Shown: piece after piece, positions 30,311 through 54,926 of the stretch | How positions within the stretch are numbered: the first letter of the stretch is position 1 | Layout: the number at the start of each line of letters is the position of its first letter | Assembly (NCBI GenBank): GCA_951406725.2 | Contig: OX597814.1 | Span: 85,622,001-85,686,000 of the forward strand | Length of the DNA: 64,000 nt | Direction of reading: 5' to 3' | DNA from: Octopus vulgaris | Taxonomy: Eukaryota | Notes under the pieces: model-generated | The model's input: only the letters and a program-made list of their open reading frames with translations | What the model was told of the DNA's origin: nothing | Databases searched by the model: none | Position numbers and translations under genes: made by a program

Positions 30311-30343
30311 GGCGCAGAAGTGACTGTGTGGTAAGTAGCTTGC
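30311..30343 (+). mobile_element. 5' head of SINE family B, interrupted by the ORF1-only element; resumes at 32457-32610
   Basis: GGCGCAGAAGTGACTGTGTGGTAAGTAGCTTGC joins TTACTAACCACATGGTT at 32468, matching the uninterrupted copy at 54065-54123 (minus). Confidence 0.9.
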
Positions 30344-30346
30344 GAG

Positions 30347-30383
30347 TCAGTGTTGTGTTTGGCACTGAAGCGGTGAAGACGTG
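30347..30383 (+). promoter_or_regulatory. Putative internal Pol II promoter (Inr + DPE-like)
   Basis: TCAGT at 30347-51 at the element start; AGACGTG at 30377-83 (+29 from the Inr A). Confidence 0.5.
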
Positions 30384-30975
30384 CTTTTGAAGCCGTCTTG
30401 AATTGAAAAATTTTGAAGCCCCATTGTAAGGTAAGATTCTGTTTTCTGGGTCCGGTGGGAATTTTTGTTGAAAAATTGTTTTTTACGGGCAGGAAGTCCT
30501 ACTGGATTCAGAATTCTGATTCTGCCGACATGGGGCAAATATATTTTTCTCGATGAATTGTGAGAATTTTTGTGGGGCGTATTCATCTTCGATAATTGAG
30601 TGAATATTTTTCTCACCTAATCATGAAAACTGTATTGTGCTGTGAAGAACTTTTAGAATTGTGAGAACTGCTATATAGGGGAGTGTTTTGCCTCCGAAGT
30701 TTGAACAATTTTTACCAATTTTACACCAATTTTTGTGGGAGTTGTGTTCCAGTTGCGGCGTTCCGGGTTCAATTTAGGCCGGGAGTACCGAATGGCCAGA
30801 AGATTTTTTGCTGTTATTGACTTTCTTTTGAACTTTATTTGACTTTCTCCTTTTTATTTATTGTGACTTTCTGTTCATTTCTTCCCTTCTGTTGTGCTTT
30901 CTCCTTTTTTGTATCCTTCTTACCTTTTTTTAAAAACCTATCGTGAACTTTATTTGGACTTTGAACTTTTTTCAC

Positions 30976-32186
30976 ATGGAAAAGAAAAAGTGAAGCCACT
31001 GCTTTGGAGTGGGAGGTTGTCCCACCCAAGCAGTGGATTAAAGATCTTGAGAAGAGGACGGTGGTACTACGAACCTATTCTAGGTCGCGTGGGGCCATCG
31101 CCCTCTTCGACAAGAACATAATAGAAAAAGAGTTGGCAGACCACCTGCCAACTATAAAGTTTATTTCTCGAGGGACCAAATTTGCAACGGTGTGGTTGCT
31201 GTTTGGTACCCTCGAAGAAGCTAGTAGATTTGCTAGCGATCCCCTTGAGGGAGAGGACGTTTTGTTCCTCCCCTCGTATTGTGGAAGAAAAATAAAAAGA
31301 GCCTGGGTGTGCGGGCTGCCCCCCGGGCACGGAGGCAGGATGGATCGAGGAGACTATCCAGCGAGGCCTGGGAAATAGTGGGTCCAGGCTTTTGAGTGTA
31401 AAAATTACTCCCGCGGTCGGCTGGGAGGGGTCAAACGCAATTTTGACCCTGTGGACCCCGGTGGCCGTGGGGGAGATGATATTCCCAGACTTCCTGAGAA
31501 TGGCCGGGCACAGGTACCCGGTGATACTCGAGAGACGCCCCCCCCCCAAGTGTCACCTGTGCCTGGAGACCGGCCACATTAAGAAGAACTGCCCCAGGGA
31601 CCAAAGTAGGATCCTGGAGCAGTTAATGGTGTAATCTCTCCCTGCTCCCCCAATGGATGGAGAGAACCAGAAGAGTGACGAGGAGGTTGTTACATCCTCA
31701 AAACGTAAAAGAAAGGCGGGCAACAATGGTGACCCACCGAAAAACCCGGGAGCCGCGGAAGAAAAAGAGGACCCGTTGTGTACACAACAGGAACCTCACC
31801 CTCCCGCGGCCCAGGGAAAAAAAGGAAGAAAAAAGAGAAACGGGACGCCGCCGGCGGATTGTAACACGCGGACGGCGTCTCCCAAGCCTCCTCAGGCGAG
31901 TGTGCCGCCGGAGGATAAATATGTGGTCCTCTTCCACAAAGGAGGAACCATTGAAAATGAGATAAGAAAAATGAAAAGGAGAGCCCAATGGGAGGGACTT
32001 CGGTCCTGCACGGAGGACCCTGAGTGGCCTTCACAGGTGGCTGCGGAGGTCCTTTGGGATAGCGATCTGTGCAGGATTGTGAATTCCTTCCCGGAGGACT
32101 CCTATAGATTTGTACCTGTGTGGTCTTGCCTGGAACCGGCTGAGTGCTTCAATAAAGCAAGAGGGCTGGTCGGCCGGGTGACCTGA
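30976..32186 (+). pseudogene. ORF1/gag-like nucleic-acid-binding protein (~400 aa reconstructed) with CCHC zinc knuckle
   Basis: Track ORFs 31004-31378, 31392-31634, 31653-32186 join via frameshifts in an A-run (~30985) and a C-run (~31320) and one in-frame TAA (31632-34); WVCGLPP, FPDFLRMAGHRYPVILE, CHLCLETGHIKKNC, K/R-rich tracts. Confidence 0.85.
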
Positions 32187-32659
32187 ACTTTTTGTATACT
32201 TTGAAGGAACATTGTATTATATTGAAACCTGAACTTTCTGTATATTTTAAAAGAACATTGTAAGAGGTTTATTGCCTCATTATGATTTGTTGAAAAAAGA
32301 ACATTGTTTTAGAGAAGCGGAAGTCGGCGGGCACTTTCGTCTTCTCCCATCATCATCTTCGTTCCATCACCATCATTCATACCATTAATGTCTGTGTCCA
32401 GCCCGCAAAGCTACATCTGTGTAATGCCCCTGTGGCAAATTAGATAAAATAAAATAAAGTAGGTTGCTTACTAACCACATGGTTACGGGTTAGGGTTACG
32501 AATGTTTATAGCAAAAAATAAGTCCTGGGGTCGATTTGCTCGACTAAAGGCAGTGCTGCAACATGGCTACAGTCAAATGACTGAAACAATTAAAAGAATA
32601 AAAAAGAATACATCCAAGTAAAAAAAAAAAAAAAATGTTTAATTCTTGCTTAGAATTTA

Positions 32660-53684: not shown

Positions 53685-53922
53685 CTCTTTAACTCTTTAC
53701 CTTGTTTCAGTCATGTGACTGTGGGCATGCTGGAGCATCGCCTTTAGTCGAGCAAATCGACCACAGGACTTATTCTTTGTAAGCCTAGTACTTATTCTAT
53801 CGGTCTCTTTAGCCGAATCGCTAAGTTACGGGGACATAAACACACCCCCATCGGTTGTCAAGCGATGTTGGGGTGGGGGGGACAAACACAGACACACAAA
53901 CATATACACACACATACATAAT

Positions 53923-53969
<47 letters not shown>

Positions 53970-54122
53970 GACGGGCTTCTTTCAGTTTCCGTCTACCTAA
54001 TCCACTCACAACGTTTTGGTCGGTCCGAGGCTATAGAAGAAGACACTTGCCCAAGGTTCCACGCAGTAGGAATGAACCCGGAACCATGTGGTTGGTAAGC
54101 AAGCTACTCACCACACAGCCAC

Positions 54123-54123
<1 letters not shown>
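53683..54123 (-). mobile_element. Near-complete SINE family B with internal (TA)n, embedded in (TA)n
   Basis: Minus head AGTGGCTGTGTGGTGAGTAGCTTGCTTACCAACCACATGGTTCCGGGTTC; both halves present; (AAAGAGT) tail. Confidence 0.92.
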
Positions 54124-54160
<37 letters not shown>

Positions 54161-54926
54161 TATGCAAACATATTTCTGTATACCTTTAAAGTAAGTACTT
54201 TGGTTCTATGTATATAAATGAATGCATACGCCCTCATACACACAATCGCACGCATACATGGACAGTAAGAACATCAAACTGAAGAGTACATCTGAAGAAA
54301 TTTCAATCGTGCGTAATTCCATATAATGTTCAACAAAAATTCACAAACAAAATTATCAATAGTTTAGGATTCTGTCGTGCGATAAAACTTGAAGAGAAAA
54401 AAGATGAAAGGAAAAATTTTTTTAAAAAATCTAATCCACCCTATACTGCTGCATAACACATATATACATACATATATGTAATTATATTTCATGAATGTAT
54501 TGTTTTAGCAAAGAATTTTAGCTAATACAATAAATCTGTTAAATAAAATTATTCGGTGATCAGTTATCTATATAAGTGACGTTCAGTTCTCTTCAGAGTT
54601 CGCTCTCCCCGATTTTTGACTCAATACATACATATATGCATGCATACATACATACATACATACATACATACATACATACATACATACATACATACATACA
54701 TACATACATACATACGTACAGACAGAGAGACAGACAGACACAGACACACACGTATGTATGAATGTATGTATACACAAACACACACACACACACATATATA
54801 TACATATCCATACACACACGCACGCCTACACACACACACGCACACACACACACACACACATATATATACACGAGTGAGTTGACAACGAAAGAAGGGCGCT
54901 CAAGACATTTATTGGGAGTTACATGT

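Follow-up and report, generated by a model that had tools for sequence, protein, structure and literature searches.

A 64,000 nucleotide stretch of the genome of Octopus vulgaris (assembly GCA_951406725.2, contig OX597814.1, positions 85,622,001 to 85,686,000 of the forward strand, hereafter termed the window) contains a 2.1 kb retroposon with a single open reading frame (ORF), which encodes a protein of the type found as ORF1 in long interspersed elements (LINEs), and with no recognizable endonuclease (EN) or reverse transcriptase (RT). This retroposon is one copy of a family whose members insert strictly site-specifically into the head of a repeat resembling a short interspersed element (SINE) and which is likely mobilized in trans by the EN and RT of a 5.4 kb L1/Tx1-like LINE that targets the same site. 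An earlier inspection of the DNA letters, to which we refer as the sequence-only reading, had described the element as an ORF1-only retroposon encoding a zinc knuckle and had interpreted it as a non-autonomous family that borrows the second reading frame (ORF2) of another element. Our analysis confirms the observation and supports the interpretation in that the element is multi-copy and has moved as a unit, although it represents an old and diverse lineage rather than a single family. Besides this diversity, the strict specificity for the SINE head and the arrangement in arrays together with the LINE go beyond the initial description.

The specificity of insertion is evident from the DNA flanking the copies, which reads ...GGCTGTGTGGTAAGTAGCTTGC upstream and GTAGCTTGCT[T/A]ACCAACCACATGGTTCCGGGTTCAGTCC... 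downstream, the two flanks representing the left and right half of the head in a single SINE-like repeat. Among 29 family copies, the left arm of this repeat is located upstream of 16, and the right arm follows at a fixed offset in 19 if a strict match is applied; by eye, a degenerate right arm is discernible in three more, including the window copy, and three copies directly adjoin the 5' end of another element. In exact genome-wide searches, a generic pattern of the 3' junction was found 722 times, a pattern of the full-length 5' junction 139 times and the empty target, represented by a 29-mer, 30,313 times for a first variant of the SINE (...GCTTACC...) and 29,995 times for a second (...GCTAACC...), with no match of the respective controls. 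For both variants together, the genome thus contains no fewer than 60,308 exact empty sites. The insertion site of the first variant resides inside a 6 bp inverted repeat (GGTAAG...CTTACC). The head of the repeat also contains GGTTCNGGGTTCA, which we take to be a B-box-like motif, and no tRNA was detected by ARAGORN in the window or by Rfam (E ≤ 1) on an intact SINE copy (53700–54180). The target repeat is found in the window at 54062–54120 on the minus strand, and only one intact SINE head is present there if up to three mismatches are allowed; no second copy of the family 3' junction was found in the window.

The junctions are constant on the 3' side and variable on the 5' side, where target-site duplications (TSDs) of about 9–20 bp, differing points of truncation and occasional extra bases are observed, as expected if target-primed reverse transcription starts from a precise nick and is followed by a second, imprecise one. 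The 11 bp TSD with one mismatch that had been assigned to the window copy (AAGTAGCTTGC on the left and AAGTAGGTTGC on the right) is real but not ordinary, as it constitutes a duplicated piece of the specific SINE target, and since it lies within this target, a chance match is not the issue. The proposed (TAAAA)n tail, on the other hand, does not hold as a microsatellite: the window unit ends in ...GATAAAATAAAATA, which corresponds to the fixed terminus of the family (...ATAAAATAAA) plus one extra 5-nt unit that is found in the window row alone in an alignment of nine rows.

The element sharing this target was encountered at locus L034, where a 2 kb element ending in ...AAATAAA GTAGCTTGCTAAC is followed by a 5.48 kb element with the same ending and subsequently by the right half of the SINE. 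A search of the genome with this LINE, in which 25 of 7436 first-look candidates were scored, listed 27 matches, of which 22 are full-length (about 5.4 kb) and 92–100% identical. Its insertion site is identical to that of the ORF1-only elements and its TSDs are of the same kind. All 12 LINE copies that were examined display the identical 3' junction, with the left half of the SINE located upstream of eight and the 3' end of another element upstream of the remaining four. A LINE-specific junction of 36 nt was found 100 times as an exact match, with none for the control, although the ratio to the 722 matches of the generic junction is rough, as the patterns differ in stringency. In one copy (L060), both frames are open, with stop-to-stop lengths of 486 and 1140 codons. 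Its ORF2 matches the Pfam families Exo_endo_phos, RVT_1 and zf-RVT, and residues 13–877 align to human L1 ORF2p as best solved relative (E 1.2e-66). The likeness to Tx1/L1-type elements noted in the sequence-only reading can thus be maintained at the level of the L1 group, whereas the names of 120 listed ORF2 relatives are not informative about the clade. Within ORF1, the LINE and the ORF1-only protein are 26% identical (BLASTP E 7e-16; hhalign probability 98.6%) in a region confined to two tandem RNA recognition motifs (RRMs) and a CCHC knuckle. At the DNA level, the last ~40 nt of the LINE match every ORF1-only subfamily while the rest of the 3' untranslated regions (UTRs) align poorly, and the expected autonomous LINE sharing the terminal ~80 bp has thus been found at the same site, but with about half of the anticipated overlap.

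As side observations, a second, diverged family of autonomous LINEs occupies the same SINE site (L083, C1:14503120-14510200, minus strand). It measures about 5.1 kb from the left half of the SINE to the 3' junction and, compared piece by piece, is 33–52% identical to the first LINE in ORF1 and 55–76% in ORF2. The elements found upstream of two LINE copies (L055 and L056) carry the same 3' terminus and encode more distant ORF1-like proteins (with a CCHC knuckle and a weak match to RRM_3) in frames of at least 412 and 214 codons, respectively, which points to further ORF1-only lineages at the SINE target.

For the ORF1-only elements themselves, a genome search with the window element (40 of 2934 first-look candidates scored, 53 matches listed) has identified the other copies with the same ends that had been anticipated, both 5'-truncated copies with a common 3' end and full-length sister subfamilies. 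Among the matches listed, subfamily A, to which the window copy belongs, comprises four copies that are 93–96% identical and about a dozen that are 76–85% identical. Subfamily B is 79% identical over positions 1–1283 of the query, followed by a different stretch and the common last ~200 nt; its 11 full-length copies measure 2194–2257 bp and share one identical start base. Subfamilies C and D have the N-terminal part and the final 77–100 nt in common with the others. On the protein level, the ORF1-only members are between 34% and 85% identical to an intact relative (P0001), and intact ORFs encompass 395–418 residues. No intact ORF was found among the listed copies of subfamily A. Conversely, two D copies on different chromosomes contain identical ORFs of 1245 nt, and the two elements overall show six differences in ~1985 positions, indicating that part of the lineage is young. 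Contigs of four sequencing runs cover a D copy but cannot show transcription, and no listed run containing the element is on record as RNA. Outside this genome, protein searches have retrieved one near-length relative, an uncharacterised protein of Octopus sinensis, and 30 distant representatives; the eight named sources among ten distant relatives looked up are all Octopus species or Argonauta. A processed pseudogene of a single-copy host gene, as one way in which the original interpretation could have failed, can be rejected, given the many copies, their fixed target and the LINE 3' end that they share. We also observed that full-length 5' ends (such as in L018-L030 and L034-L053) contain a GCGCATG[C/T]GC-like palindrome in their first 10–20 nt. 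This palindrome may belong to an internal promoter, and we presume that it resembles an NRF1-type site.

To see whether any family-type ORF1 would be joined to an ORF2, we have used tblastn to tally the ORFs in 85 loci, which comprise the top matches, the sequence following tandem cases, full-length 5' junctions (20, belonging to seven junction types), an array of seven units described below and 18 further variants of the 3' junction. We identified 72 family-type ORF1 stretches in these loci (a slight over-count, since certain places occur in two of them), and in no case is the stretch fused to an ORF2. An ORF2 match is located within 3 kb downstream in three of the stretches, where each time a complete 2 kb element, with its own 3' end and the 13 bp target repeat, adjoins an independent LINE in head-to-tail orientation; a single genomic place accounts for two of these three cases. 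By comparison, an ORF2 follows in 15 of 15 stretches with a LINE-type ORF1. The window element itself shows no Pfam match to EN or RT and no other long ORF. Longer or fused homologues of the ORF1-only protein were also not found, which is weak evidence.

The protein encoded by the family combines parts of known and unfamiliar fold. An AlphaFold model of P0001 (418 residues, based on an alignment of 22 rows) is confident for residues 18–205 and 333–416 and disordered in between (211–327). For the N-terminal part, where the mean predicted local distance difference test score (pLDDT) is ~75–95 per block of ten residues, a Foldseek search has retrieved 25 matches at E ≤ 0.001, including UP1 of hnRNP A1 (E 8.3e-5, probability 1.00), RRM1-2 of HuR and RRM12 of IMP3. 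The RRM-like region suspected in the sequence-only reading is thus predicted to consist of two tandem RRM domains. In the following zinc knuckle, the cysteines are nearly invariant in the alignment of relatives; the Pfam score for zf-CCHC amounts to 18.5 bits in the window copy, which is below the cut-off of 20.8, and to 23.9 bits in the ORF1 of the partner LINE. In Pfam scans that covered the pieces of the window copy, the ORF1 of the LINE and two relatives, zf-CCHC is listed besides rows at chance level, with no match to Transposase_22. The C-terminal domain of ~90 residues, previously described as unrecognised, has retained this status: modelled separately from the C-terminal 183 residues of the window copy (11 alignment rows), it folds confidently, with pLDDT values of 84–95, and shows no clear structural match, as there is no Pfam match, no usable match in a protein atlas, a best E-value of 0.64 in Foldseek against the PDB and a best Z-score of 4.2 over 64 residues (rmsd 3.5) in VIA-align, leaving only a weak likeness to small alpha/beta sandwiches. 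The domain does not align to the ORF1 of the partner LINE. It is kept in subfamilies A, B, C and D, with the motifs VVLFHKGG and DPEWPPQVA, and in a member that is only 40% identical.

As had been proposed as a check, we have determined the ratio of nonsynonymous to synonymous substitutions (dN/dS) by the Nei-Gojobori method on single genomic copies. Between subfamilies, the ORF is under purifying selection, with a ratio of 0.12–0.38 for the RRM-CCHC part, at dS values of up to 1.8, and of 0.24–1.02 for the poorly aligned linker and C-terminal domain.

These data bear on the possibility that the 2 kb elements are recent or recurrent deletion derivatives of an autonomous LINE with the same ORF1, whose ORF would be a mere remnant. 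HAL1, the ORF1-only derivative of mammals, has arisen several times independently (PMC5753468), and the copies in the octopus genome were sampled only in part, both of which would be compatible with such an origin. Yet the low identity between the ORF1s argues against a recent origin of the elements by deletion from the LINE, whose ORF1 is also devoid of the C-terminal domain, and the 5' ends of both kinds of elements, compared at their starts, begin with unlike sequences. Together with the absence of a fused ORF2 from all 72 family-type ORF1s, the LINE-type ORF1 of L083 as a second LINE family, and the separation of subfamilies at dS values above 1 with a dN/dS of 0.12–0.38, this renders a derivation by deletion very improbable.

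Elements of the family are also organized in head-to-tail arrays. In one SINE copy (C1:223694700-223712699; L066, L067 and L064), seven D units of 1.98 kb are followed by a 5.4 kb LINE, with the members separated by the 13 bp target repeat GTAGCTTGCTAAC. The seven units are 0–16 substitutions apart and one of them contains an intact ORF of 415 codons. Such arrays could have originated either from repeated insertion into a regenerated target or from unequal crossing-over. As a separate observation, three exact LINE 3' junctions at C9:2664548-2675457 are spaced by 5.42–5.45 kb, which suggests head-to-tail arrays consisting of the LINE alone. With respect to the family as a whole, we have considered whether segmental or tandem duplication or unequal crossing-over, instead of retroposition, could account for its spread. 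Three B copies on contig C28 that are located ~20 kb apart with identical flanks and certain members of the seven-unit array that are only 0–2 substitutions apart would be in line with amplification on the DNA level. However, the copies are found on many chromosomes, in two SINE variants and within differing outer flanks, they are truncated at different 5' positions but joined to the target by a constant 3' junction and their TSDs vary between 9 and 20 bp, all of which makes a general spread by such processes scarcely credible.

The evidence is most readily accounted for by a family devoid of RT that would depend on the ORF2 protein of the co-targeting LINE. In this scheme, an internal promoter in the 5' UTR would give rise to the mRNA of the element, which would be coated in cis by its own ORF1 protein via the RRMs and the knuckle. 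The LINE ORF2 protein would then recognize the common 3' terminus (...TGCC-N5-GGCAAAT..AT[A/G]AAATAAA), its apurinic/apyrimidinic-type endonuclease (APE) would introduce a bottom-strand nick into the SINE head (GGTAA/GTAGC, the slash marking its position) and the RNA would be copied by target-primed reverse transcription. A second nick, 9–20 bp downstream, would create the TSD and restore the target to either side of the insertion, which would in turn permit tandem re-insertion. A shared target preference has similarly been used as argument that Tx1-Mar LINEs mobilize SINEU (Kojima 2015, PMC4494074).

Several points weigh against this explanation. The participation of the LINE ORF2 in the mobilization is itself something that we infer, and the likeness between the LINE and the ORF1-only elements is limited to ~40 nt. 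The TGCC-CCTGT-GGCA stem-loop described in the sequence-only reading is found in the window copy at 32425–32437 and its motif is conserved in sequence, but the TGCC/GGCA pair is invariant, which leaves no covariation to judge it by, and in folding energy it does not outperform shuffled sequences (z-scores of −0.12, 0.34 and 0.07; −1.77 for the LINE). Since the pair never varies and the folding energy gives no support, the stem-loop is unproven. At least one further autonomous LINE family (L083) uses the same site and may drive some of the subfamilies. An autonomous relative with a family-type ORF1 may exist, as our tally covered the best candidates and a sample of junctions, and subfamily A, to which the window copy belongs, may be extinct. 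Finally, the dN/dS values are affected by saturation of dS between the most diverged pairs and by the poor alignment of the linker and the C-terminal domain.

A closer relationship between both elements is conceivable if they formed a mutualistic pair comparable to HeT-A and TART, in which the C-terminal domain of the ORF1-only protein would help the ribonucleoprotein particles (RNPs) of both to arrive at the SINE target or to make use of it, so that the two kinds of elements would persist as partners. Such a system might explain why the ORF1-only lineage is old and under purifying selection, why the C-terminal domain, although absent from the LINE ORF1, is conserved in members of 40% identity and why both kinds of elements are found head-to-tail in the same arrays, and proteins of ORF1-present non-autonomous LINEs are considered likely to multimerize with those of their autonomous counterparts (Kojima 2018, PMC5786205). 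Still, the LINE retains an intact ORF1 of its own, many LINEs reside alone in the SINE, with the left arm directly upstream in eight of 12 copies, and the C-terminal domain shows no recognizable fold that would hint at targeting, so that we regard this arrangement as unlikely. In its most far-reaching form, an old RT-less lineage with its own promoter region and C-terminal domain would be the obligate partner of SINE-dwelling, site-specific L1/Tx1-like LINEs, with its protein taking an active part in the targeting of both or in the assembly of their RNPs, a conjecture to which we assign a small chance. If true, it would constitute a two-component system of the HeT-A/TART style that occupies an interstitial rather than a telomeric site and occurs beyond the insects.

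HeT-A and TART reside in head-to-tail arrays at a telomeric target, whereas HAL1 is not known to have a sequence-specific target and contains an ORF1 of the mammalian L1 type, corresponding to the Pfam family Transposase_22. With its LINE-type ORF1, the lack of EN and RT, the insertion marks of a LINE and the 3' end shared with one, the octopus family fits the class of non-autonomous LINEs that have kept ORF1, for which few cases are named, these being HeT-A, HAL1 and Ag-Sponge (Kojima 2018, PMC5786205), and it combines the features of this class with a target specificity in the style of Tx1. In its behavior, it is closest to the HeT-A/TART pair of Drosophila, which belongs to the Jockey clade and likewise consists of an RT-less Gag/ORF1 element, HeT-A, which PMC5786205 lists in this class, and an RT-encoding LINE, with a common specific target and related but diverged ORF1 proteins. 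Both systems differ in that HeT-A/TART occupy chromosome ends and involve a Jockey partner, whereas the octopus family is directed to an interstitial SINE head present in tens of thousands of copies and has a partner from the L1 group; moreover, its TSDs would be made by an APE endonuclease and no host function is implied. With HAL1, it shares the features of an L1-group derivative encoding only ORF1p with LINE-type ends (PMC5753468, PMC5786205). Its ORF1, however, which consists of tandem RRMs, the CCHC knuckle and a new C-terminal domain without Transposase_22 and which is only 26% identical to that of its partner, is of a different type, and the family is thus not a HAL1 in the strict sense. 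Ag-Sponge of Anopheles is listed in the same ORF1-present class (PMC5786205) but belongs to a different clade, CR1.

The combination of an APE-encoding LINE inside a transposon with a co-targeting rider is known from LINEs of the Tx1 clade, which target other transposons, as exemplified by Tx1L in Tx1D and by Tx1-Mar with SINEU in Mariner-N4_AMi, with the role of the non-autonomous rider deduced from the common target (Kojima 2015, PMC4494074). The rider of Tx1-Mar is a SINE with an snRNA head, whereas in octopus it is a protein-coding element of 2 kb and the target is a SINE. The octopus LINE displays two traits of Tx1, an ORF1 accompanied by an APE- and RT-containing ORF2 and a target-specific insertion, while its assignment is restricted to the L1 group. 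A repeat annotation of Octopus vulgaris from 2026 lists L1-Tx1 families (PMC13282606), which could not be linked to the present LINE. In literature searches on octopus Tx1, SINE and LINE retrotransposons and on HAL1, we have found no description of the family; the main text and one supplement of PMC13282606 contain neither 'ORF1' nor 'non-autonomous' and the supplement does not contain 'site-specific'. ORF1-only derivatives of LINEs bear on the question of what ORF1 proteins contribute when RT is provided by another element. The octopus family makes this question testable, as it offers a precisely defined target that is empty in tens of thousands of places, together with an autonomous partner, young copies and a domain of unfamiliar fold that appears to be selected, and it thereby opens cis-preference, 3'-end recognition and the choice of target to experiment. 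It further provides an example of a nesting in three tiers, SINE, LINE and LINE-rider, in a genome where the role of repeats in generating novelty is debated.

Within this lineage, the window copy (Table 1) is inactive, as it carries three lesions in its ORF and lacks the first 11–21 nt of the 5' end.

Table 1. Anatomy of the ORF1-only retroposon in the window and of the repeat arms at its borders (numbering as in the window).
Feature	Position	Strand	Remarks
SINE-like repeat, left arm (GGCGCAG...GGTAAGTAGCTTGC)	30311–30343	+	final 11 nt (30333–30343) are the left TSD
Near-full-length retroposon copy	30344–32456	+	2.1 kb
5' UTR	30344–30975	+	632 nt; ATG at 30976
ORF1-type frame, ~400 codons	30976–32186	+	frame shifted twice (+1 each) and interrupted by a stop codon
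Tandem RRM fold region, predicted	31025–31547	+	approximate limits, mapped from residues 18–184 of the intact relative P0001
CCHC zinc knuckle (KCHLCLETGHIKKNCP)	31548–31595	+	CX2CX4HX4C; Pfam zf-CCHC
Basic low-complexity linker, predicted disordered	31596–31907	+	pLDDT <50 in both models
Family-specific C-terminal domain, ~90 residues (VVLFHKGG...DPEWPSQVAAE...)	31908–32177	+	
3' UTR	32187–32456	+	36-nt duplication; last ~40 nt common to LINE
SINE-like repeat, right arm, internally deleted	32457–32589	+	first 11 nt (32457–32467) are the right TSD

The ORF of ~400 residues is distributed over three open pieces (30965–31378, 31296–31634 and 31635–32186), and the number and kind of its lesions agree with the initial account, including the location of two of them in homopolymer runs. 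An alignment to three close copies places a first +1 insertion at ~30990 beside a run of A and a second in a run of C at ~31319, while the third is an in-frame TAA (31632–31634) at a position where relatives read through. An in-frame deletion of 6 nt is found after 31825. The unit had been regarded as complete. It does lack EN and RT within the borders given in Table 1, but it is only near-complete, as full-length copies of sister subfamilies start 11–21 nt further 5' and contain the GCGCATG motif in the missing segment. Likewise, of the GC-rich unit only the ORF qualifies as such, with a GC content of 0.52–0.59 compared to 0.37–0.40 in the 5' UTR and 0.30–0.38 in the flanks. The duplication of ~36 bp in the 3' region was correctly recognized and relates two segments of 36 nt (32181–32216 and 32227–32262) that are 89% identical. 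In the right arm of the SINE-like repeat, positions 33–66 of the SINE align at 32458–32491 and positions 362–439 at 32512–32589. An Rfam scan of the window element has returned rows at chance level only.

Two further observations concern the surroundings of other copies. About 700 bp upstream of one ORF1-only copy, an unrelated open frame of 218 codons encodes tandem C2H2 zinc fingers (L024:2-655), and about 2 kb past a tandem pair of ORF1-only elements, long RT-like frames belong to another LINE family that is not joined to the pair (L031:4431-10000).

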